Shown: piece by piece, positions 10,447 through 24,594 of the stretch
Layout of the letters: every line of letters begins with the position of its first letter
Numbering within the stretch: the first letter of the stretch is position 1
NCBI GenBank assembly: GCA_034530615.2
Contig: JAVRCV020000029.1
Span: 1 to 24,594 of the forward strand
Reading direction: 5' to 3'
Length of the DNA: 24,594 nt
From: Aulosira sp. ZfuVER01
GTDB lineage: Bacteria; Cyanobacteriota; Cyanobacteriia; Cyanobacteriales; Nostocaceae
Notes under the pieces: generated by a model
The model's input: the letters and a program-made list of their open reading frames with translations, nothing else
Databases searched by the model: none
What the model was told of the DNA's origin: nothing
Program-made: the position numbers and the translations under genes

Positions 10447-12249
10447 TCACTTTTTACTGGCTAAAGGCAATGTAAACCAAAATGTTGCTCCTGCTGAAGA
10501 TGAACTATTTACACCAATTTCACCACTGTGGGCATTGATGATTTGCTTACATAGATACAATCCCAAGCCCAAACTTACAGAATTGCGGATGTTACTACCC
10601 CGATAGTATAGGTCAAAAAGCCTTTCGCTTTGTTGTTGACTGATTCCGACACCGTTATCACTGACAGTGCAATAAATCTTCTCCCCTTCAGGGGTGGCGT
10701 TGATTGTTAAGAGTAAACCAGGGGGATTGTGTTTAATCGCATTGGCAATTAGATTAGAAAAGACTCGCCATAGTTGCGTAGGATCGGCATTGATTACGGG
10801 TAAATCGGCGTTTACTAAATTTGTGAGAGTAGCTTGATTTTCTGCTAGCATCGGTTCTAAGTCTGCGATCGCAGCTTCTACAACTGTATGTAATTGCACG
10901 GGTTGGAGTTGTAATACTACTCCTTGTACCTCACTAACATGAGTCTCTAGCAAGGAATTAATCAAATTGAGTTGGCGATCGCTACTTTTGACCATCCGTT
11001 CTAAAATCGACCGGGAAATTGTAATTTTGCTGTCTGGGTTTGCTAGCAAGTTCTTCAGCACCATTAAAGTCCCAAGTACTGGGTTGCGTAAGTCGTGAGA
11101 AACTGCATGGAAAAATACTCGCAGTGCTTCCTCAGCTTGCTTACGCTTTGTAATGTCTTCCGTCAGTCCCTCGTAGTAAAGTAGTTTTCCTTGTTCGTCA
11201 CGAACTGCGTAGGCTTTTTCCGAAATCCAAACAACGCTCCCATCCCGGCGATAAATTTGCGATTCAAATTCCGAGATACTGCCATGCTGTTCAATTAAGC
11301 GGATAAACTCGGTGCGACGGTTGGGGTCAACATACAATTGATGTTCAATGTCAGTGAAGTTGGCTGTTACCTCTTCTGGAGAAGAATATCCGTAAATTTT
11401 GGCTAACGCCGGATTAGCTGTAATGTACTGTCCATCAGTACTACTTTGGAAAATCCCTTCAACAGCGTTTTCAAAAATACTGCGATATTTAGCTTCTGCA
11501 ACCTTGAGTTTTTGATAGGCAGATTCTAGTTCTTGATGAGCATAAAAATCGGAACGTTGCAGGCGATCGTAAAGGTAAACACCAATGTCACAAATAGCAC
11601 ATAACCAAAATACATATAAAATGAATGTCACATTATAGATTTCTGGATGTTCGGGTATAGGTGTTTTTAGACCAAGTACTGTATTGACACCAAAATAGTA
11701 AATTAGCAAACCCACCTGCGACATCAGGTGTAAACGCCAGCAAACGGGGATAAATGTGGCTTGACTCAAAAACAGCAGCGACCAAGCTAGGGTATCAGGT
11801 AGGGCAAAACCTTTGATAGTAGCGAAAAATTGTGTTCCTAGACTAATTGACCAAGATGACCCCAAAAATAACATTTCTGGATGACGTTGACCAAACTGAG
11901 TTTTATGCAGGATAAAACAGACAAGTAGAGTCAGCAGCATGGCAAGATTAATGAATAGCCCCTGCGTTCTCAAGGACTCTGGTACTTTTTCAAACTCCTT
12001 TAAGGGGAAAAATACGTCATAAATATTGCGCAAGGTGAATGTCAACAAGCAGATTAATGCTAGTAATAACCACAATTGCAATCTCTGCCACAAAAAACGT
12101 TGTCTAGCAGCCAGCCATTCTGAATCGTGAACACAACTGTTAGCAACAGCAGCAGTTTGATCTGATGTTGATGCGCTAAAGGCTTTTTTGCCCCAGTTTT
12201 GCAGTGTTCTCAATAAGTTAGCCATGAACTTCTTACCAACTTTGCCCAT
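10447..12249 (-). CDS. Membrane-bound PAS histidine kinase
   Basis: About six N-terminal TM helices, PAS/PAC (YRSIFENAVEGIF...DITKRK), H-box VSHDLRNP, N-box NLIANAIKH, G1 DNGVGI, G2 LGLGLYLC. The start may instead be ATG 12225. Confidence 0.92.
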   Translation of the reverse strand: MGKVGKKFMANLLRTLQNWGKKAFSASTSDQTAAVANSCVHDSEWLAARQRFLWQRLQLWLLLALICLLTFTLRNIYDVFFPLKEFEKVPESLRTQGLFINLAMLLTLLVCFILHKTQFGQRHPEMLFLGSSWSISLGTQFFATIKGFALPDTLAWSLLFLSQATFIPVCWRLHLMSQVGLLIYYFGVNTVLGLKTPIPEHPEIYNVTFILYVFWLCAICDIGVYLYDRLQRSDFYAHQELESAYQKLKVAEAKYRSIFENAVEGIFQSSTDGQYITANPALAKIYGYSSPEEVTANFTDIEHQLYVDPNRRTEFIRLIEQHGSISEFESQIYRRDGSVVWISEKAYAVRDEQGKLLYYEGLTEDITKRKQAEEALRVFFHAVSHDLRNPVLGTLMVLKNLLANPDSKITISRSILERMVKSSDRQLNLINSLLETHVSEVQGVVLQLQPVQLHTVVEAAIADLEPMLAENQATLTNLVNADLPVINADPTQLWRVFSNLIANAIKHNPPGLLLTINATPEGEKIYCTVSDNGVGISQQQSERLFDLYYRGSNIRNSVSLGLGLYLCKQIINAHSGEIGVNSSSSAGATFWFTLPLASKK

Positions 12250-12310
12250 CTCATCCCAGGTGTTTCCTTATTTCCAGACTGCCATAACACCTTGGGATTT
12301 GGACGCTGAT

Positions 12311-14800
12311 TTATCGGTGAGTTGTAGAAGATGGAGTTGCTAAAGGTAATGTGAACCAAAAAGTTAATCCTTGCTTGCGGTGACTAATAATACCAATTTC
12401 GCCACCATGTGCCTGAATAATTTGCCGACTCAGATACATTTTTAAAGCAATACTGGTAGAACAACAAGCTTGTGGCTCAGGGACATATAAATCGAAAAGG
12501 CGATCGCACTCTAGTTTGCTCATGGTGACACCATTATCTTGAATTTCTGTGCGAATTATGTCACCTTCAACTTCGGTTTTCAGGGTAAAACTTAATCCTG
12601 GTGGGTTGTTCTGCAAACTATAAGTCAATAAATTTGCCAGAACCTTTTGCAACCGAGTCGGATCTGCCATCACTAATGGTAAATCGTCGGGCACTAAGTT
12701 ATTCAAAGTTGCTTGATTTTGGTTGAGCATCGGCTGCAAGTCTTTGAGGCTACACTCCAGCAGCGTGTTAAAGTGTACCAATTCCCGGCGGAGAGCAATT
12801 CCTTGACCTTCGCATCTATGAATTTCTAGCAATGAATCAATCATCCCTAATTGACGGTCATTACCTTGAATCATGCGTTCAATCACTGAACGAGACATTG
12901 GGATTTGAGATTGGCTAGTTTCTTGAGTTTGTTCTTGAGTTTTGAGTAAATTCTTCAGCACCATTAAGTTTCCCATAACCGCAGTGCGCAAATCATGAGC
13001 GACGGTATGCAACACCACATCTTTGATTCGTTGCATTCCTTCTAGTTCCTGCATTTTCTGCTGTAGTTGGGCGGTGCGTTCTTCTACCTGATGTTCTAAA
13101 TTAGTATTAAGTGCTGCTAGCTCTTGGTAAAGTCGAGCTTGCTCAATGGCGATCGCCAACTGTTCTGACATTTGCTGTAGTAAATCGATTTCTATACCTT
13201 GCCATTGACGCGGCCCAGAACATTGGTTAGCAATTAAAGCCCCAAATAATTCGTTATTGAGCATAATTGGTACAGCTAAGGTAGCTCGTGTCTGAAATTG
13301 TTGATAATGTGCTTTTAATTTTGGCGATACGATGATGTTGTTAACATCTTCAACTAAACGCACACGATTAGTTGTCAGGAGAGTTTTGATTTCCTGGAGA
13401 TAAGTTTCATCCTCTGTCGTCCAACCTAAGATGGCGGGATATTTGGGATCTACTGATTCAGCAACAGCTTTAGCTCCCGTTTTGGCATCGTTGAGACCAA
13501 TAAAAACCCGATCTGTTTGCAAAAATTGCCGCACTTCCGTCACTGTAGTTTGGAGAACTTGGTCGAGGTGAAGGGAAGACCGAATTCTGGCTAGGGTTTC
13601 TGTCAACAGGCGATCGCGCTGTGCGGAAAGGCGCAATTGAGCTTCTACTTGCTTGCGTTCTGTAATGTCGTAAGTAACTGCAAGAATGCAAGGGATACCA
13701 TCTAAATCAATTATTTCTGCTGAAACTAAAGCTGTAATTATCTTCCCAGACTTCGAGCGAAATTCTAATTCTAAGTTCCTAATTAATCCTGTAGCGCGCA
13801 ATTCTTGCAATAATTTCATGCGATCGCTTTTGTCTACCCACATATTTAACTCAAAAGCAGTTTTACCAATCACTTCATCTCGCTCATACTCTGAAAGTCT
13901 CACAAAACTTTCATTAACTTCTATGAAGCGTCCTTCTTGCACGGTGCTGAGGGTGATGGGATTGGGACTGCAACGAAAAGCTTTAGTATACTTTTGAGCG
14001 AGACTTTGCAAATTTGCTTCTGCTTGTTTGCGTTCTGTGATGTCTCGGACAATTGCTAAGACTTCATCTGCACCGCTAACAACTAACCGCGCCTCGTAAT
14101 CTCGGATTCCCAAAGGTGTTGGTAGTTGGTATTCACAAGTTTGCAAATTCTGAGAATCCAAAGTTTTGGCGATCGCTTCTTGGTTAATAGCCGCCGCATC
14201 ACTCGGCAAGACATCCTGTAAATTTTTTCCAACTATCTCTTCTTTAGGAAGAATTATATTTGCACCATCGCCTTTCAAATCGAGATACTGACCATCACGG
14301 CTCAAGCGAAACATCAAATCGGGAATCGCATCTAAAATTGCTTTATAGCGCATCTCACTGTTGCGCAACTTTTCTTCGGCTTGTTTGCGGTCTGTAATAT
14401 CCATTACCAAACCCTCCCAAAGCAGGTCGCCATTAGCTTGTCGTTCTAGTTGTGAAGCACCTTGAAGCCATTTAATTTTGCCAGTTGGGGTAATGATGCG
14501 ACCTTCCCAACGCCAAGGTGACAAAGTAGCTTTAGCAACATCAACAGATTCAGTTAAGGCTTGGACATCCTGTGGATGAAGCAGTTTGTCTAATACCTGC
14601 ATATCTGCCATGATCGCTTCTGGTTCTAACTCATATAGTTCTCGACAACCAGAACTCACGTAAATAACAAGCTGGGAACCATCCTGCCGTTGCAGAACTT
14701 GAAAAATCATCCCCGGTAAATTTGCAGCAATTTTTTCCAACAGAGTCACAGTCCCTTGTTGAAAATCAGGTTTATGCAGTAATTTTACAGTTTCATCCAC
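12311..14800 (-). CDS. Cytoplasmic PAS-PAS-PAS-GAF histidine-kinase-like protein with degenerate ATPase domain
   Basis: Three PAS/PAC units each ending DIT(D/E)RKQ, a GAF domain, and H-box VAHDLRTA. N, G1 and G2 boxes are degenerate (NLLTYSLQN, DNGVTM, STSIALKMY). Confidence 0.9.
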   Translation of the reverse strand: MDETVKLLHKPDFQQGTVTLLEKIAANLPGMIFQVLQRQDGSQLVIYVSSGCRELYELEPEAIMADMQVLDKLLHPQDVQALTESVDVAKATLSPWRWEGRIITPTGKIKWLQGASQLERQANGDLLWEGLVMDITDRKQAEEKLRNSEMRYKAILDAIPDLMFRLSRDGQYLDLKGDGANIILPKEEIVGKNLQDVLPSDAAAINQEAIAKTLDSQNLQTCEYQLPTPLGIRDYEARLVVSGADEVLAIVRDITERKQAEANLQSLAQKYTKAFRCSPNPITLSTVQEGRFIEVNESFVRLSEYERDEVIGKTAFELNMWVDKSDRMKLLQELRATGLIRNLELEFRSKSGKIITALVSAEIIDLDGIPCILAVTYDITERKQVEAQLRLSAQRDRLLTETLARIRSSLHLDQVLQTTVTEVRQFLQTDRVFIGLNDAKTGAKAVAESVDPKYPAILGWTTEDETYLQEIKTLLTTNRVRLVEDVNNIIVSPKLKAHYQQFQTRATLAVPIMLNNELFGALIANQCSGPRQWQGIEIDLLQQMSEQLAIAIEQARLYQELAALNTNLEHQVEERTAQLQQKMQELEGMQRIKDVVLHTVAHDLRTAVMGNLMVLKNLLKTQEQTQETSQSQIPMSRSVIERMIQGNDRQLGMIDSLLEIHRCEGQGIALRRELVHFNTLLECSLKDLQPMLNQNQATLNNLVPDDLPLVMADPTRLQKVLANLLTYSLQNNPPGLSFTLKTEVEGDIIRTEIQDNGVTMSKLECDRLFDLYVPEPQACCSTSIALKMYLSRQIIQAHGGEIGIISHRKQGLTFWFTLPLATPSSTTHR

Positions 14801-15073: not shown

Positions 15074-15107
15074 AATTTTAGATTGGAGAGTTTCCCAATC
15101 TAAAATT
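15074..15107. repeat. 13-bp-stem hairpin built from STRR-like units
   Basis: AATTTTAGATTGG, 8-nt loop, CCAATCTAAAATT. It overlaps the end of the 15078..15707 ORF. Confidence 0.75.
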
Positions 15108-15707
15108 GTCTGACCCACATAATTGTTGAATTTCAACTGCAAAAAACTGCGCTGGCTTCATTTGCTGATTTAAGAACTCAACTATACGCTGAAGTTCAGC
15201 CGGAATCTGTGTAGCTACAAAAACAAGACGGATCTTCACTGCTTGTAAGTTTTTGGTGACTTGTTGCCAAAACCGATCTGGATTGGCATCTTTTTCACCA
15301 AGAAGTTCTATTAATAACTGTTGCGCATTTGGTTTAGCTTCAAACTGAGCGCGAATTTTCTGTAATGACCAGTAATTTACTGCATTCGCTGCATAATCAA
15401 GCATTTGGCTCACTATTTCTCTTCTGATGGGCGTATCATGACCGCGTTTAACTTTTATTAAGGTAGGAATTCCATTCTCGTCGAGAAACAAATGATCTAA
15501 CGCCCAATATCCACCATTGGCTTCTGCATTCGCTATTGTTTCCTCTTGTGAAACTAACAGCCAGTTGCGGTTTATAGCACCATCTATATGTTCGTCAGCT
15601 ACAGCCAACAAATTTGGATATTCAGCTATTAACTTTTGTAATAAAGCTTTTGGTGTTAGTTCCGCTAGTTGAGCACAATCTTGAATTAGGTAAATATCAC
15701 TACTCAT
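15078..15707 (-). pseudogene. Truncated/degenerate NucS-like PD-(D/E)XK nuclease-domain gene
   Basis: LDHLFLDENGIPTLIKVKR...QMLDYAANA resembles the D...ExK...QxxxY nuclease core but has Lys at the expected Glu. The ORF ends inside a repeat hairpin. Confidence 0.55.
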
Positions 15708-17376: not shown

Positions 17377-18216
17377 CTATAACTTCCCAGTAAAAACACG
17401 CTCTGCTGGGCCAGTCATATAAACTCGTTGGTCAACTTCTGACCATTCAATTTGCAAGGGGCCACCAGGTAGTTCCACGGTTGCTGTGCGATCGCATTTT
17501 TCGGTCAACACACCAGCTACCAAGGAAGCGCAAGCACCAGTACCACAAGCTAACGTAATACCCGCACCTCGTTCCCAAACCCGCATTTTTAGGTAGTTAC
17601 GGTTCACTACTTGAATAAATTCGGTATTTGTCCGTTGTGGGAAAACTGAGTGATGCTCAAATTTAGGGCCGATGGTTTCTAGGGGAATTGCAGCTACATC
17701 TTCCACAAAGGTAATACAGTGGGGATTGCCCATACTGACGCAGGTAACATCCCAAGTTTGCCCCGCCACCTCTAGCGGTTGATTAATTACTTTTGTATCC
17801 GCAGCACTCAAGGTAGTAGGAATTTCTCCAGCTAGTAATTTGGGCAAACCCATATCTACCTTCACTTGGCCATCAGCCATGAGTTGGGGTGTAATTACAC
17901 CTGCCAAGGTATGAATGCGATATAAATCTTGATTTCTGGATTCTCCCTCCAAATCAGCCAAAAACACACCTAAACAGCGAATACCATTACCGCACATTTC
18001 CGGTTCTGAACCATCAGAATTGAAAATCCGCATGGTGTAGTCAGTACCGTTTTCTCCCGGCAAAGCAAAAATCACACCATCAGCACCGATACCAAAGTGG
18101 CGATCGCACAACTCGATCGCTTGCTCTGGAGTCAGTACTGGCAAGGATGAAAAGCGATTATCAATGAGAATGAAGTCATTCCCCAAACCGTGATACTTAG
18201 TAAATTCGATTGCCAT
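17377..18216 (-). CDS. dapF: Diaminopimelate epimerase
   Basis: [30 protein letters not shown] and [13 protein letters not shown]. Confidence 0.98.
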
Positions 18217-18269
18217 TTACCCAAGGATGAATTATCAAAGATTAGTTACTGTTGATTATGAATGAGAAA

Positions 18270-18318
18270 TTGGGCATGGGGCATTGGGCACGGGGCAATG
18301 GGCAAAAGTCAAAAGTCA
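18270..18318. repeat. STRR-like tandem heptamers
   Basis: Five NNGGGCA units (TTGGGCA, TGGGGCA, TTGGGCA, CGGGGCA, ATGGGCA) followed by two AAAGTCA. Confidence 0.85.
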
Positions 18319-18325
18319 TTCTTAC

Positions 18326-18405
18326 AAAGTTCTGAGCGGAGGAAACCTCCGCAGCCCACTTGCTTTGCGACGCAGGGCGACAGGAACGCAAGTGACTCAA
18401 ACTTT
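18326..18405. repeat. Nested small dispersed hairpin repeats
   Basis: Outer hairpin AAAGTTCTGAGCGGAGG-AAA-CCTCCGC...TCAAACTTT is interrupted by about 44 nt carrying its own IR CACTTGC...GCAAGTG. Confidence 0.65.
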
Positions 18406-18420
18406 GTGCTTTGTCATTTC

Positions 18421-18452
18421 CCCACGTCCCCGCGTCTCCACGTCACCTTGTC
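18421..18452. repeat. Tandem octamer repeats
   Basis: CCCACGTC CCCGCGTC TCCACGTC ACCTTGTC. Confidence 0.7.
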
Positions 18453-18493
18453 CTCCTTCCAGTCCCCAAACTCTTATTAAAACATTCTGCCTT

Positions 18494-18730
18494 ATGCATA
18501 CATCATCACCAAAAACGCTTACAGAATTCGATACTTCACTGCCCAGCATTCGGCAAGTGCAAAACCTGATTAAACAAACAGCAGTAGTAGATTTCAAACT
18601 GGTGACGGGCGATTTACTTACGGGTAGAGTCATCTGGCAAGACCCAAACTGTGTATGTATTGTGGATGAAAACAGCCAGCAAATGACAGTTTGGAAGCAG
18701 GCGATCGCCTACATCAAACCGAAAAGTTAG
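18494..18730 (+). CDS. hfq: Cyanobacterial Hfq (Sm-like) protein
   Basis: EFDTSLPSIRQVQNLIK...KLVTGD.LTG.V.WQD...VWKQAIAYI. Divergent from dapF, as is usual in cyanobacteria. The start is uncertain; ATG 18494 was chosen. Confidence 0.9.
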   Translation: MHTSSPKTLTEFDTSLPSIRQVQNLIKQTAVVDFKLVTGDLLTGRVIWQDPNCVCIVDENSQQMTVWKQAIAYIKPKS

Positions 18731-18787
18731 GCTGGCTAAGATTCTTCAAGTCTGGGTCGTCAGCCTATGTTCGTATAGCCGCGCCTT

Positions 18788-21124
18788 TTAAGGTGTCGGC
18801 TTATCTACAGGCAGAAATTCTTTTAGGGCTTCTGTCTCACCAGCTTTGACTATAGGCAGAGATAGCGGTACTGCGTCAGGTGCAGCAAACAAATGTTGTA
18901 GTTGATTCAGACTTGCCAAGCCACCGCATAACAATACTTGATCGCCAATTCGCAAGTCCATTTTGCCATCAGGTGAGCGAATAAACTTACCATCGCGCCG
19001 GATTGCCTCTACTTTTACGCCATGTTTGTCACTAATATCTAAATCTGTAAGAGTTTTACCTAAGACTGGAGTATCTTTGTTAATTGTCGTCCACTGACAA
19101 GCGCTATTTTCTCCAGGAACTGCTGTTCTACCAACGGCAAATTCAGCCAAAGCTGCTAGTTCTTCGTCTGCTCCTACTACCAGCAAGCGATCGCCTTCTT
19201 CTAAGCGGGTTTGATTATCGGGATAGTCTATTTCTTCGCCGTTAGCGCGGCGAATTGCCATTAAACTCACCCCAATTAAGTAACGCATATCTGCTTCTTC
19301 TAAGCTCATGCCAATTAGGGGTGAACCAGATGGTAGGGGATACCAGCGCCGATTCAAATCGCGAGTTGCTTGCTGTAGATCGCGAGAAACTTCAGATGCA
19401 GAACGTTCTGGCCGCAAGTCTAAATAATGATCTTTGCGAATTTGCTGCATTTCGCGTTGTACGACTGCTGGTGGCAAATCTAAACCTGTTAATAAATGGG
19501 TTGCCATTTCTAAACTAGCTTCAAACTCTGGTTGCACCACTTCCTTTGCTCCCAGTTGATAAAGCACTTCAATATTTTTATCTTGGGTAGCGCGGACAAC
19601 CAAATCTAATTCTGGGCATAATTCCAAAGCGCGTTTTAGACAAAGACGGGTACTCATGGGATCGGGGAGTGCGATCGCCATTCCTTTGGCACGGTTAACA
19701 CCAGCAGTTTCTAAAACGTGAAAACTCACGCAATTGCCGTATACATAAGGAACTCCAGCATCACGTAATTTCTGAATTCTACTTTCCGATTGGTCTATGA
19801 CTACCACAGGTAGCTTGTGTTGCTGCAACAACTTAACTAAATTTTTGCCCACTCGCCCGTAACCACAAACTACTACGTGGTCTTTCAATGGCAAATCGTC
19901 TGAGACATCACGCGGCTGAACTTCTTCTAAATAAGGTTTCAGCCAAGGCATGGATTCCGCCAAAGTAAATAAAAATGGCACCAAACGTAGAACAAACGGG
20001 GTTAGTACAAGTGTTACTGCTGTAGTTCCTAAAATCAGTAAATACACTGTGCGAGAAACTAAACCTAACGCCTGCCCTTCACTGGCAAGTACAAAGGAAA
20101 ATTCTCCAATCTGAGCCAGTCCTAGCCCCGCAATTAAAGCTGTTTTCAAAGGATAGCGGAACAGTTTTACCAAGGGTGTAATAATCAAAAACTTCCCCAC
20201 GAAAACTATTGCTACCAAACCTAAAATTAATTCCAGGTTTTTCCACAAAAATACTGGGTCAATTAACATCCCAATGGATGCAAAAAACAAACTGGCAAAG
20301 ATATCTCGTAGTGGCTCAACATAGGTCAAAGTTTGGTCGGCGTATTCCACCTCGGAAATCATCAACCCAGCGACAAACGCCCCCATTTCAATCGAAAGCC
20401 CTAAATACTCTGTCAACAGGGCAATCCCTAAGCACAGTGCCACTACACCTAATAAAAATAGCTCTTTGCTTTCAGTACGCGCTAGCAGTCGCAACAACGG
20501 CGGGATTAACCAAATTCCTGCGACGACTGCACCAGCCGCAAATAAGCCAATTCGTACCAACGCTGTGACTACTGCTACACCAATCGCTTCACCGGGTTCA
20601 TGCAAGGCTGGTAAGACTGCTAGCATTAGTCCCAATGCCAAGTCCTGTACTACCAAAATACCTAGCATCACCTGTCCGTGGGGTGTTTCTGTTTCATTGC
20701 TTTCCATTAAGCATTTGAGGACAACTGCGGTTGAAGATAAAGACAGAATTGACCCCAAAAACACGCCTTTAGCAGGTAAGGCCCCCCAAGCTCCGGTGAC
20801 ACCACAAACCACAACCGTGATCAAAATCGTCAGCGCAATTTGTAGTCCTCCGCCACCAAGAGCGATCGCCTTTACCTTCTTGAGTTCTGCAAAGGAAAAT
20901 TCTACGCCCAAGGCAAATAGCAAAAAAGCGACCCCAAACTGAGCCAGAGTCTCTACTTGAATAACTTCTTTAATCAATCCCAGCCCCGCAGGCCCCACAA
21001 CCATCCCACCGATGAGATACCCAAGCAATACTGGTTGTCGTAACAGCGCCGCAAACAGTCCGCCACAGGCTGCGACGGCGAGAACTGAAACTAAATCAAC
21101 AATTAACCTAAAATCTTCTTGCAC
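18788..21124 (-). CDS. CPA2/Kef-type cation:proton antiporter with TrkA-N and two TrkA-C (RCK) domains
   Basis: Multi-TM region with LSSTAVV, VVQDL and LAQIGEFSFVL. HVVVCGYGRVG Rossmann motif, then two TrkA-C repeats. Confidence 0.93.
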   Translation of the reverse strand: MQEDFRLIVDLVSVLAVAACGGLFAALLRQPVLLGYLIGGMVVGPAGLGLIKEVIQVETLAQFGVAFLLFALGVEFSFAELKKVKAIALGGGGLQIALTILITVVVCGVTGAWGALPAKGVFLGSILSLSSTAVVLKCLMESNETETPHGQVMLGILVVQDLALGLMLAVLPALHEPGEAIGVAVVTALVRIGLFAAGAVVAGIWLIPPLLRLLARTESKELFLLGVVALCLGIALLTEYLGLSIEMGAFVAGLMISEVEYADQTLTYVEPLRDIFASLFFASIGMLIDPVFLWKNLELILGLVAIVFVGKFLIITPLVKLFRYPLKTALIAGLGLAQIGEFSFVLASEGQALGLVSRTVYLLILGTTAVTLVLTPFVLRLVPFLFTLAESMPWLKPYLEEVQPRDVSDDLPLKDHVVVCGYGRVGKNLVKLLQQHKLPVVVIDQSESRIQKLRDAGVPYVYGNCVSFHVLETAGVNRAKGMAIALPDPMSTRLCLKRALELCPELDLVVRATQDKNIEVLYQLGAKEVVQPEFEASLEMATHLLTGLDLPPAVVQREMQQIRKDHYLDLRPERSASEVSRDLQQATRDLNRRWYPLPSGSPLIGMSLEEADMRYLIGVSLMAIRRANGEEIDYPDNQTRLEEGDRLLVVGADEELAALAEFAVGRTAVPGENSACQWTTINKDTPVLGKTLTDLDISDKHGVKVEAIRRDGKFIRSPDGKMDLRIGDQVLLCGGLASLNQLQHLFAAPDAVPLSLPIVKAGETEALKEFLPVDKPTP

Positions 21125-21319
21125 CAGTTTTAAAAAGAACTATTAAGACCTATTAACCTCAGCATACAAATTTTTATATATCTTCGCTCAGGTTATTGGT
21201 GCAAGGAAGACAAAATTTGCAGATTTATCGCTAAATATTTATATAGCTAGGTAACAGGGATGAGGAAGCAGGGGTGCAAGGTGACAAAGGACAAATGACT
21301 TTTGACTCTTCTTGAATAC

Positions 21320-21353
21320 AAAAAAGCATAAGCGTGCCATTAAAGCACGCTTA
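21320..21353 (-). terminator. Probable intrinsic terminator of the thrC-like/moaD-like operon
   Basis: 9-bp stem TAAGCGTGC/GCACGCTTA with a 7-nt loop, followed on the minus strand by TGCTTTTTT. Confidence 0.55.
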
Positions 21354-21389
21354 AAGATGTATATTTAACAAATTTATAACTTCTCTCTA

Positions 21390-21665
21390 TCAACCACCTG
21401 CAACAGCGGGGACAATACTGACTTCATCACCATCTTTAAGAGGGGTACTTGTCCCATCTAAAAAGCGAATATCCTCACTATTGACATACAAATTCAAAAA
21501 TCGCCGTGGCTTTCCTTCTTCATCGCATAAGCGTGATTTAATACCAGGACAGCTATCCTCTAAGGAATCGAACAATTCCGCAATCGTACTGCCGCTACAT
21601 TCTAGCGTAGCTTGGTTATTGGTAAATTTCTGAAGAGCCGTGGGAACTAAAACTGTTACAGACAT
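21390..21665 (-). CDS. MoaD/ThiS-family ubiquitin-like sulfur-carrier protein
   Basis: 91 aa, [29 protein letters not shown] with C-terminal Gly-Gly. Confidence 0.93.
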
Positions 21666-21671
21666 AGTTGG

Positions 21672-21792
21672 AGTATGAAGTGTGAAATATGAAGTATTTA
21701 GGGCGAAGCCCTAACAGTTCCCTCGTTCGCGTTATTGTCTCCGCAGGAGAAGAGGGTTCTCGCAAGGTAGGGTAGTGTGAAGTATGAAGTGT
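21672..21792. repeat. Heptamer run interrupted by a cassette of small hairpins
   Basis: AGTATGA/AGTGTGA/AATATGA units flank the hairpins TTAGGGC-GAA-GCCCTAA (21698-21714) and TCTCC-GCA-GGAGA (21738-21750). Confidence 0.7.
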
Positions 21793-21829
21793 TTAGTTTT
21801 GCAACCTTCAGCCTTCACCCTTTATCCTT

Positions 21830-23134
21830 TTAGACGAGTACTTGCTGCCATTCCAAACGATCAAGAGTACGTGAACGCTCTAATGCGCGTTCAAAACTAT
21901 CGAGTTTGGCATCAATTGTCAAAGGTTCGCCAATGTAGCCATGAAGTGCTTCTTGGGTTTTCAGACCATTGCCAGTGATGTATACCACAGTAGTTTCATC
22001 TGGATCAATTTTGCCAGCTTCTACCAATTTTTTCAGCACAGCAACGGTTGTACCACCAGCTGTTTCCGTAAAAATGCCTTCAGTTTCTGCTAGCAGTTTG
22101 ATACCTTCAATAATTTCTGCATCATTGACTGATTCAATATTACCGTTTGTTTTCTTAGCTATCTCTACAGCATAAACACCATCTGCTGGGTTGCCGATCG
22201 CAATCGATTTAGCAATAGTATTTGGTTTGACTGGTGTAATGAAATCACGTCCTTCTTTATATGCTTGAGCGATGGGAGAACAACCCTCAGCTTGCGCCCC
22301 GCTAAAACGAACATCTTTGGCTTCTACCAAACCAACTTCTACAAATTCTTTGAATCCCTTATAAATTTTTGTAAATAGGGAACCAGATGCGAGAGGTGCG
22401 ACGATGTGGTCGGGTAATTCCCAACCTAATTGTTCAGCAACTTCAAAGCCTAGAGTCTTAGAACCTTCAGAGTAGTATGGGCGGAGATTAATATTTACAA
22501 AACCCCAACCATGTGTATTTGCTACTTCCGAACAAAGACGATTTACCTGATCGTAATTGCCCTTCACAGCCATTAATGTAGGACTGTAGATCAGGCTACC
22601 CATAACTTTCCCAGCTTCCAAATCTGCGGGGATAAACACACAGCAATCTAAGCCTGCGTGAGCTGCGATCGCTGCTGTAGAATTTGCTAAGTTACCAGTG
22701 CTAGCACAAGAAACAGTAGTGAAACCCAACTCTCTGGCTCTAGTTAAAGCAACTGAAACCACCCGGTCTTTAAAGCTGAGGGTGGGCATATTGACAGCAT
22801 CGTTTTTAATATAAAGCTTATTTAAACCCAGACGACGAGCTAGACGGTGAGAACGAACCAGAGGTGTCATCCCAGTTCCCACATCTATAACATTGTCAGT
22901 TGCGACAGGCAAAAAGGGACGGTAACGCCAAATAGAATTAGGTCCAGCTTGAATTTTTTCACGAGTGACAGAATTACGCAGAGCGTTGTAGTCATACTTG
23001 ACTTCTAAAGGGCCAAAGCATAACTCACAAACATGGTTGGCTTTCAGTTCGTATTCCTCACCACATTCCTTACACTTCAAGGCTTGAAAAGAAATAGTGG
23101 CTGCTTCGGTGAGTGCGGATTTTGTCTGAGTCAT
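21830..23134 (-). CDS. thrC: Threonine synthase-like PLP enzyme (fold type II) with N-terminal CxxC/CxxC motif
   Basis: PTLSFKDR PLP-lysine motif, CASTGN, NLRPYYSEGSKT and ITGNGLK; N-terminal CKEC...CELC. The family is secure but the substrate is not. Confidence 0.85.
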   Translation of the reverse strand: MTQTKSALTEAATISFQALKCKECGEEYELKANHVCELCFGPLEVKYDYNALRNSVTREKIQAGPNSIWRYRPFLPVATDNVIDVGTGMTPLVRSHRLARRLGLNKLYIKNDAVNMPTLSFKDRVVSVALTRARELGFTTVSCASTGNLANSTAAIAAHAGLDCCVFIPADLEAGKVMGSLIYSPTLMAVKGNYDQVNRLCSEVANTHGWGFVNINLRPYYSEGSKTLGFEVAEQLGWELPDHIVAPLASGSLFTKIYKGFKEFVEVGLVEAKDVRFSGAQAEGCSPIAQAYKEGRDFITPVKPNTIAKSIAIGNPADGVYAVEIAKKTNGNIESVNDAEIIEGIKLLAETEGIFTETAGGTTVAVLKKLVEAGKIDPDETTVVYITGNGLKTQEALHGYIGEPLTIDAKLDSFERALERSRTLDRLEWQQVLV

Positions 23135-23172
23135 AAACCTAGCTTCCCTGTTTGTCTGTCAACTGTCGCCTG

Positions 23173-23201
23173 ATAGTAACACGAGTAGAAATACCAGTCA
23201 A
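23173..23201 (-). promoter_or_regulatory. Sigma70-type promoter of the thrC-like gene
   Basis: Minus strand reads TTGACT, 17-nt spacer, TACTAT, with a TGn extension, about 38 nt upstream of the ATG. Confidence 0.65.
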
Positions 23202-23203
23202 AC

Positions 23204-23228
23204 ATATCCGACTATTTTTGTCGGGTAT
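23204..23228. promoter_or_regulatory. Rrf2-family (IscR type 1-like) palindromic operator
   Basis: ATATCCGACTATTTTTGTCGGGTAT matches 23 of 25 positions of the IscR type 1 consensus as I recall it (ATASYYGACTRWWWYAGTCRRSTAT). It sits 2 nt upstream of the -35 box. Confidence 0.6.
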
Positions 23229-23379
23229 TGTTAGTTTGTCAAAAAATTTGCAAATCGCCAGAAACTTGCAGTGGCTTGTCAAAGACATTGCTTTCAAGTT
23301 TCCTTGGCTGGAGGAGCGATCGCTTTTGATATGTCTACGCCAAAAACCGCCAACTCTCCTGAAAATTGGCAATGGGAAA

Positions 23380-23961
23380 TCTTATATCTTGCACCTGGAA
23401 ATTTTGATGTCAATTCCATGACTAAGTGCCAAGTTTCTCAGACGTTCAATGTCTTGTAAAAGAAGTAACAGCACTAATTGTGGAAAGATAATTTGGAATA
23501 CAATTTCTGCGGCTTGTCCCCAATTGGGTAAATTTGTAGATGCAATTGTTGTAGATAAGTAAGCCCAATGGGCCAAGATGTAGGCGAGCAAAGACAGTAT
23601 CAACCAACGGTAAACGCCTAAGAGTGTTCCTTGTCCAAAACGGTGTAAACCAAAACGGTGTTTGGCAGTTTTAAACCAACCTTCTATCTGCCATCGTCGT
23701 TTACCCCACCAAGAAATGGTGCTGGATTTGAGAGCTTTAGTAGACAAGACAAAGCGTTTTTCATATTTGCCATCATCACGCTTGAAATAGTACCAAGATA
23801 GATAAACAGGAAACTTTAAACCTCGAAGACGCAAGTGTTGTCCGCGTTTATGTAGTTGAGAAAGGCTGTATCCCGAAGTTAATTGCTGCGTCCTGGCGAT
23901 ACCAGCAATGACGTGATATTTGAGCTTTCGCACACCATGTAGAAATTCCACACTGCCGAAA
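23380..23961 (-). mobile_element. 5'-truncated DDE transposase remnant (IS701/IS4-like)
   Basis: KRFVLSTK and RRWQIEGWFKTAKHRFGL (R-W-x-I-E...K signature). The frame is closed by a stop at 23969, so only about 190 C-terminal residues remain. Confidence 0.8.
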
Positions 23962-24374
23962 AGTAATTAAACCAGTTCTACTAGTTAAGCCAAACACTTG
24001 AAGAACCTCAGGCAGCCCTTAAGAATGCCCTTTTTGACTAGGCATGGCTTGGTGACTTAACCATGACTCTGAATAAACTTAGGAAATTAGCTCTATATGA
24101 GCAGTAGTTTTACGGCAAAAAATCTGAGAATGTGAGATACTAACTACCTTCTGCCAAAAATCGCTAAAACTGTCCGTATTACTGCTGTATTTAATCTTTA
24201 GCCTTGCTTAATCGTGGCGATAGTCAAATCAAACTCTCGTAATCATCTCAATGTATAAATTTGAGAATTAACTGATCGCACTGATCCTAAACTATGGTGA
24301 TTGTCGGTGATGCTTGGTAACGCTATAAAACCTAATGACAGGAATTGAACGCACAATAAAGTAATCTTAACAAT

Positions 24375-24412
24375 ACAAAAGCCCCTGCAAAATTACATGG
24401 AGGGGCTTTTGT
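24375..24412 (-). terminator. rRNA-operon-type terminator, copy 1
   Basis: 12-bp stem ACAAAAGCCCCT/AGGGGCTTTTGT just 3' of the 5S sequence. Confidence 0.8.
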
Positions 24413-24422
24413 GAGATTATAA

Positions 24423-24487
24423 ACCTGGCATCGAGCTATTGTGGCGGGAGGCAACCCTCCAACTATCGTGGCCGCAGCAGCGTTTCA
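24423..24487 (-). pseudogene. rrf: 5S rRNA fragment (3' half only)
   Basis: Minus strand reads TGAAACGCTGCTGCGGCCACGATAGTTGGAGGGTTGCCTCCCGCCACAATAGCTCGATGCCAGGT, the 3' ~65 nt of a cyanobacterial 5S rRNA. The 5' half (GAACCAC...CCGAAC) is absent. Confidence 0.88.
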
Positions 24488-24537
24488 ATAAAACCTAATG
24501 ACAGGAATTGAACGCACAATAAAGTAATCTTAACAAT

Positions 24538-24575
24538 ACAAAAGCCCCTGCAAAATTACATGGAGGGGCTTTTGT
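24538..24575 (-). terminator. rRNA-operon-type terminator, copy 2
   Basis: Identical to 24375..24412. Confidence 0.8.
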
Positions 24576-24585
24576 GAGATTATAA

Positions 24586-24594
24586 ACCTGGCAT
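24586..24594 (-). rRNA. rrf: Extreme 3' end of a further 5S rRNA copy, running out of the window
   Basis: ACCTGGCAT in the same context as 24423..24431. Whether this copy is complete cannot be seen. Confidence 0.55.

Follow-up and report, generated by a model that had tools for sequence, protein, structure and literature searches.

The mycobacterial CysM/CysO/Mec/MoeZ pathway is built around CysM, a member of the cysteine-synthase family that carries out a beta-replacement on O-phosphoserine. A route from O-phosphohomoserine to homocysteine, MetM/MetO, has been described in Streptomyces albulus (Hasebe 2024, as cited in PMC12172450, PMC13759103 and bioRxiv 10.64898/2026.09.15.751699; these sources and the review below were accessible in part). 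MetO, Mec, MoeZ and MetM of this species are listed as experimentally supported, and MetM is stated to be often misannotated as threonine synthase (GapMind 2026, PMC13759103). It is this system that corresponds to the Streptomyces ThrC-like enzyme and carrier from which the original prediction for our locus was drawn.

Homologues in cyanobacteria were found by Hasebe 2024, according to Kim et al. 2025 (PMC12172450). In the accessible text of the latter, an enzyme and a carrier of Microcystis aeruginosa PCC 7806 are named MetM/MetO homologues (51.6% and 47% identity); the enzyme has about 433 aa with an extra N-terminal domain, lies beside the MetO-like carrier, and is accompanied in the genome by a separate ThrC2. 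Upon addition of threonine, enzyme and carrier are co-induced 10.5-fold and 6.8-fold, thrC2 and ilvA are uninduced, homoserine goes up, and methionine and SAM go down; methionine reverses the induction and rescues growth. Assayed without the carrier, the homologue displays threonine synthase activity (Vmax 0.0176 umol/mg/min, or about 0.014 per second by our hand calculation for a 47-kDa subunit; Km 4.4 uM; A400 readout), with kinetics described as near those of the Thermus enzyme, and also threonine deaminase activity. As far as the accessible text goes, homocysteine was not identified in carrier-free assays with Na2S, a peak near methionine, its identity not assigned, appeared with O-phosphohomoserine with or without Na2S, HPLC indicated limited threonine accumulation, and there was no methionine rise in the cells despite the induction. 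The authors read this 'ThrC' as a moonlighting threonine synthase/deaminase and conclude that it is not fully MetM in threonine-treated cells (Kim et al. 2025, PMC12172450).

The pathway and its homologues in cyanobacteria have both been published, and the idea of a homocysteine synthase is not new. Our literature search, with most subscription journals outside its reach, returned no assay of a cyanobacterial enzyme together with its carrier. A 2020 review describes the steps of methionine synthesis before homocysteine as not determined in Synechocystis (PMC7133116).

The two-gene operon and its genomic context

The window, i.e., the whole stretch of DNA analysed here, comprises 24,594 nucleotides of contig JAVRCV020000029.1 of Aulosira sp. 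ZfuVER01. The operon and its putative control sites are the following:

21390..21665, minus strand: ubiquitin-like sulfur carrier of the MetO/CysO type, 91 aa, free Gly-Gly end (ORF list, Pfam, PDB matches)
21830..23134, minus strand: PLP enzyme, MetM-type with ThrC fold, 434 aa (ORF list, Pfam, NCBIfam, structure model, identity comparisons)
21329..21353, minus strand: intrinsic terminator, 10-bp stem and T-rich tail, 3' of the carrier gene (hairpin scan)
23173..23201, minus strand: sigma-70-type promoter, TTGACT-N17-TACTAT, extended -10 TG (promoter scan; layout recurs in relatives)
23204..23228, no strand assigned: 25-bp palindrome, putative operator, consensus ATACCCGAC-N7-GTCGGGTAT (conservation in cyanobacterial loci)

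We consider it probable, at about 85%, that this operon is the cyanobacterial MetM/MetO pair, a carrier-dependent homocysteine synthase. A two-gene unit of a 434-aa PLP enzyme and a 91-aa Gly-Gly protein had been predicted here, and the ORFs at 21830-23134 and 21390-21665 confirm it. The promoter and terminator claimed for the unit were likewise recovered (23201-23173 and 21353-21329); the promoter scan alone did no better than chance (8 found vs 7.9 expected), and the layout is conserved in relatives, with TTGAC 1-3 nt after the operator in 62 of 69 loci. The two genes are 164 nt apart on the minus strand; the gap (21666-21829) holds three copies of short TGAAGTATGAAG-type repeats, and its length varies widely among relatives.

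A ThrC-like enzyme followed by a carrier of about 91 aa is also the arrangement of MetM/MetO in S. albulus. The Microcystis 'ThrC' resembles the window enzyme in its size, extra N-terminal domain, carrier and separate ThrC2, a published description that suggests orthology. Carrier type and activation logic are the same as in CysM/CysO, from which the locus differs in that its enzyme belongs to the ThrC family.

The enzyme matches PALP in Pfam (E 6e-75) and passes the cut-off of TIGR00260 (thrC; 341.8 bits, cut-off 167.1), a model that cannot tell the paralogues apart, the canonical ThrC of the same genome scoring 338 bits; with PRK08197 it falls marginally below the cut-off (300.6 vs 303 bits). 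Among its named homologues the closest belong to Nostocales and other cyanobacteria, and all of these are annotated as threonine synthase, a label that for the present enzyme is probably wrong and that recalls the frequent mislabelling of MetM. The structure model (pLDDT 91, from a 40-row alignment) finds its best fold matches among threonine synthases, at 24-37% identity; no solved MetM structure was found by sequence or fold search. With canonical ThrC (PDB 2zsj, 1uim, 6cgq, 2d1f, and the gene of the same genome) the enzyme shares fold-type II PLP architecture, the PLP lysine motif (K122, inside SFKDR) and probably the substrate, but identity is 33-37% (36% to the paralogue in its own genome), it falls in another clade, and it has an extra N-terminal Cys-pair domain and an obligate carrier partner.

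It also lacks the RxEGQKT and PVGNxGN motifs, both of which have catalytic roles in threonine synthases. In their place are NINLRPYYSEGSKT (residues 214-227) and PLASGSL (247-253), in contrast to the four of four canonical or plant-type ThrC proteins that we compared. The replacement, RPYYSEGSKT (NINLRPYYSEGSKT) and P[LI]ASGSL, is found in 69 of 69 cyanobacterial orthologues.

Of the N-terminal CxxC/CxxC motif noted originally, the presence stands (residues 21-24 and 36-39) but its importance for the family does not: in 10 of the 69 cyanobacterial orthologues only one of the four cysteines is left, so that metal binding would not be required in those ten and the motif is not essential to the family. 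We accordingly rejected the four-Cys motif as a defining family feature. The ten (L183, L185-L187, L189, L191-L195, from families f6, f8, f9, f11 and f13) carry SKEG...CEET instead and are otherwise 82-86% identical, which looks like a lineage-wide loss of a putative metal site.

The carrier ends in IVPAVAGG and matches the ThiS family of Pfam (E 8e-18), with a ThiS/MoaD fold. In the PDB it is matched best by 4n6e_B (E 1.5e-22) and 3dwg_C (E 2.5e-21), which we take to be CysO-type carriers. Identity to the MoaD and ThiS of the same genome is 31% and 25%, and since these are separate genes elsewhere (contigs C52 and C3) the carrier is the third one in the genome. As stated originally, no molybdopterin or thiamine gene is nearby, in that Pfam detected none among the 19 window ORFs put through it. 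The free Gly-Gly end recurs in 66 of the 67 cyanobacterial carriers read; the carrier of genome G074 (L186) ends in Gly-Gly-STRN and would need trimming. Genome G255 has, next to a Mec gene, a second carrier gene that is more distantly related (41% identity; C1:2170191-2171183).

The genome, 8.03 Mb in size and 99.99% complete, encodes a second, canonical ThrC of 363 aa (contig C50), as well as ThrB and MetH, both above cut-offs. Profile searches of this genome detected no MetA, only short alpha/beta-hydrolase pieces for MetX (best E 1e-6), and no full-length protein of the PF01053 family (MetY/MetB/MetC/MetZ), the best match reaching 44 bits over half of the model and the three best looking like other PLP enzymes. 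Because MetA, MetX and a full-length PF01053 protein are all missing, there is no recognised homocysteine route in this genome unless the pair supplies it. On contig C64, a Mec-type Prok-JAB (JAMM) gene (153 aa) lies directly before a gene for a MoeZ-type E1/rhodanese protein (390 aa, 69340-70512; PRK07411 819 bits; MoeZ model 523 bits, below its cut-off of 647). MoeZ and Mec homologues are a further likeness to the MetM/MetO system, and the two proteins presumably act on this carrier. A second thrC, MoeB/MoeZ and JAMM/Mec partners, and absence of metA, metX and metY were what the original prediction had looked for, and its proposed conversion of O-phosphohomoserine to homocysteine gains support from these genes and from the clade described below.

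The Streptomyces activities are those in print, and it is from the reported function of MetM, together with ThrC and CysM/CysO chemistry as we know it, that we infer the activity of the present enzyme, its chemical steps and its sulfur donor. ThrB would phosphorylate homoserine to O-phosphohomoserine, and the MoeZ-type protein (C64:69340-70512) would adenylate the C-terminal glycine of the carrier, leading to a thiocarboxylate. O-phosphohomoserine would be bound at K122 and its phosphate eliminated as in threonine synthase; the carrier thiocarboxylate would then attack the gamma carbon, in place of the addition of water to the beta carbon. Release of homocysteine would be followed by its methylation to methionine by MetH, and the separate ThrC would turn the same substrate into threonine. 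With no carrier present, threonine or 2-oxobutyrate would arise by decay of the intermediate, a possible explanation for the activities in the Microcystis assays. Threonine toxicity in Microcystis may also be re-read as methionine starvation caused by a shortage of O-phosphohomoserine.

Distribution of the pair and competing explanations

We surveyed 301 genomes of the phylum, 136 from the class of the window and 165 others. An orthologue of the enzyme is present in 126 of the 136 class genomes at E < 1e-200; the 165 others gave no match better than 1e-82. From the class we examined 80 genomes further (all 30 class-level rows, 37 order-level genera with one genome each, and 13 from the family). 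Of these 80, 70 have both enzyme and carrier and 10 have neither, and never does one occur alone; the genes are adjacent in 68 of the 70 (median gap 104 nt) and separated in two. All 70 pair-bearing genomes have another threonine synthase beside the pair. Canonical ThrC is found in 79 of the 80; the exception, G247, has a plant-type threonine synthase of 463 aa instead of the usual cyanobacterial one (L228, C4:241614-245585). A third ThrC-like gene occurs in G074 and G183 (L229, L230).

Of the 70 pair-bearing genomes, 19 encode a full-length PF01053 protein and 2 encode MetA; all 10 pair-less genomes encode both, and in them metA adjoins the PF01053 gene, which by its size and position can be read as metY. 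With MetX counted at 1e-58 or better, a complete acyl-homoserine route (MetY-like plus MetA/MetX) is present in 15 and absent in 55 of the 70 pair-bearing genomes. As all ten losses of the pair fall within one family (f24) and could go back to the same event, they are to be taken as one clean swap, not ten. Two genomes, G053 and G125, have the pair plus an adjacent metY-like/metA pair, the state expected of an intermediate before loss. The pair is thus an obvious candidate to fill the cyanobacterial gap before homocysteine, being present in 126 of 136 class genomes and swapped with metY-metA where missing, and this gap is now directly testable. If our reading holds, the label 'threonine synthase' would be corrected in thousands of cases, and metabolic models with it.

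Mec was found in 55 of 70 pair-bearing and 6 of 10 pair-less genomes; it does not track the pair, and we rejected it as a pathway marker. Since the carrier already ends in free Gly-Gly, maturation by Mec should not be needed in cyanobacteria, and the 15 of 70 pair-bearing genomes that show no Mec fit a maturation enzyme that many cyanobacteria can dispense with.

Outside cyanobacteria, we compared 80 actinobacterial loci (the best 80 of 597 confirmed in named genomes) plus one Nonomuraea record, 81 in total, and found a carrier at 76 of these 81. All 52 Streptomyces loci among the best 80 of 597 encode an enzyme 52.8-56.4% identical to that of the window, with carriers at 45-53% identity and the same replaced active-site motifs. 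The first replaced motif is present in a variant form in 81 of 81 orthologues of this set (best 80 of 597 plus Nonomuraea), a count that is partly circular because the motif was one of the two search patterns. Of the 76 carriers in the same set (best 80 of 597 plus Nonomuraea), 20 end in Gly-Gly-Cys, which sets them apart from the free Gly-Gly of their cyanobacterial counterparts. A SAM-I riboswitch lies immediately upstream in 19 of the 20 loci of this set (20 of the 81, from the best 80 of 597 plus Nonomuraea) that were put through Rfam. In a quick 66-row tree, with MetM of S. albulus (A0A059WBP2) itself outside the comparison, the cyanobacterial and actinobacterial enzymes form a 40-row clade (SH-aLRT 99) with canonical ThrC outside. 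The phylogeny suggested originally therefore places the enzyme with Streptomyces enzymes under SAM-riboswitch control.

Several observations run against the homocysteine reading. The 15 pair-bearing genomes with a MetY-like plus MetA/MetX route have both systems, the losses are perhaps one event, the presence of Mec does not follow that of the pair, and threonine synthase and deaminase activities are reported for the Microcystis homologue in carrier-free assays (PMC12172450, accessible in part).

These activities speak for a second threonine synthase with an additional threonine deaminase function, in which case the carrier would be a bystander or serve some other pathway, and the TIGR00260 score slightly over that of canonical ThrC is in keeping with it. 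Such an enzyme would be hard to reconcile with the other ThrC kept in 70 of 70 pair-bearing genomes, with a carrier whose presence matches that of the enzyme in 80 of 80, or with the replacement of RxEGQKT and PVGNxGN in every cyanobacterial orthologue. It would also leave 55 of 70 genomes with no known homocysteine route, orthologues lie behind SAM riboswitches, and threonine accumulation by HPLC was limited in the accessible part of the Microcystis paper. We regard this explanation as unlikely.

A cysteine pathway, the alternative named in the original prediction, would make the enzyme a carrier-dependent cysteine synthase that uses O-phosphoserine like CysM/CysO, or else a cysteate-synthase-like enzyme. 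The closest solved structures of the carrier, presumably CysO-type, would suit the former, and cysteate synthase is a ThrC-fold relative, but the enzyme scores only 87.1 bits with its model (TIGR03844), far below the cut-off of 324.9. No cysK or cysM model is among its 25 best NCBIfam matches, and in the quick tree its branch is separate from the CysK/CysM family. The genome already has three CysK-type genes plus a fourth that is cysteine-synthase-like, which makes another cysteine enzyme unlikely. Furthermore, loss of the pair accompanies gain of metA, a methionine gene, and SAM control in the orthologues indicates methionine, so that we give a cysteine function very little weight.

The least probable explanation, to which we assign a very slim chance, is that free sulfide or cysteine reacts with O-phosphohomoserine to give homocysteine or cystathionine, the carrier being only an aid: it could draw on the peak near methionine in the Microcystis assays and on the two of 70 genomes with the genes apart, but all 70 retain the carrier, nearly always with its Gly-Gly end, and a PF01053-family match at 1e-50, as a cystathionine beta-lyase would give, is absent in 51 of 70.

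Upstream control region and neighbourhood

The operon of the window differs from MetM/MetO in that it has no SAM riboswitch and instead a putative protein-type operator. No Rfam riboswitch was found in the window at gathering score, and the interval 21200-24594 gave three chance matches only. The 25-bp palindrome is placed upstream of the -35 box at a distance of two bases and resembles what we take to be an IscR/Rrf2 type-1 site. An operator-like site with at most 5 mismatches from the IscR type-1 consensus, as we assume it, occurs in 61 of 69 cyanobacterial upstream regions, against 0 of 260 in a shuffled control (shuffles of 52 regions). In the four f24 loci the operator arms are kept and the spacer is GC-rich; G053 has no site.

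Within its own genome no other site is strong: the operator scores 35.8 and the next site 16.4, against a maximum of 16.2 in the shuffled control. A wider regulon was not apparent there, the strict matrix giving 2 matches scoring at least 13 vs 1 per shuffle and the soft matrix giving matches at shuffle level, mostly within genes; nor was a site found upstream of the four Rrf2 genes of the genome. Three of these four are CymR-like and one is IscR-like without cysteines (C53:75778-76254). Two CymR-like genes each lie immediately before cysK (C80:3322-4844 and C56:56932-58645), the C56 gene also adjoining a divergent cysE-looking gene.

Among 53 genomes searched at a threshold of 1e-35, the IscR-like protein is present in all 39 from outside f24 and in none of the 14 from f24, an absence that at this threshold may only reflect divergence. 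In 10 genomes whose operator is intact, the search detected no CymR-like paralogues. Judged by this distribution, the IscR-like protein is a better candidate for the operator-binding factor than the CymR-like ones, and a factor from outside the Rrf2 family is also conceivable. A literature search on the operator, its regulator and cyanobacterial genetics gave nothing usable, and the IscR consensus was not found in PMC4683182. In RNA runs, 5-6% of words matched; the contigs were mostly 90-95% alike and came from relatives, so that strand, start and co-transcription were not readable.

One may tentatively go further and suppose, though we would not expect all of it to hold, that oxygenic cyanobacteria made methionine ancestrally, and still make it mainly, through MetM/MetO, with metY-metA taking over only in a single small-genome picocyanobacterial family, and that their substitute for the SAM riboswitch is the 25-bp operator, which hardly varies and would be recognised by the IscR-like Rrf2 protein without cysteines. 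The latter protein would then be an unrecognised regulator of methionine or sulfur status.

Just upstream of the operon promoter (23382-23951, minus strand) is a 189-aa fragment of an IS4/IS701-like transposase, with weak DDE matches under NCBIfam cut-offs. Further on, an exact 107-nt direct repeat (24325-24431 and 24488-24594, period 163) reaches the contig end, each copy with a strong hairpin. The repeat has no Rfam match, a 5S rRNA at the contig end was considered and dropped since Rfam gave no support, and the repeat is possibly an assembly edge at a repeated locus. The remaining neighbours (106-1901, 10447-14800, 15078-15707 and 17377-21124) are unrelated to the pair: a response regulator that consists of a receiver only, with a HAMP histidine kinase; two kinases of PAS/GAF type; a 209-aa ORF to which Pfam assigns no family; and dapF, hfq and a CPA2/TrkA antiporter.
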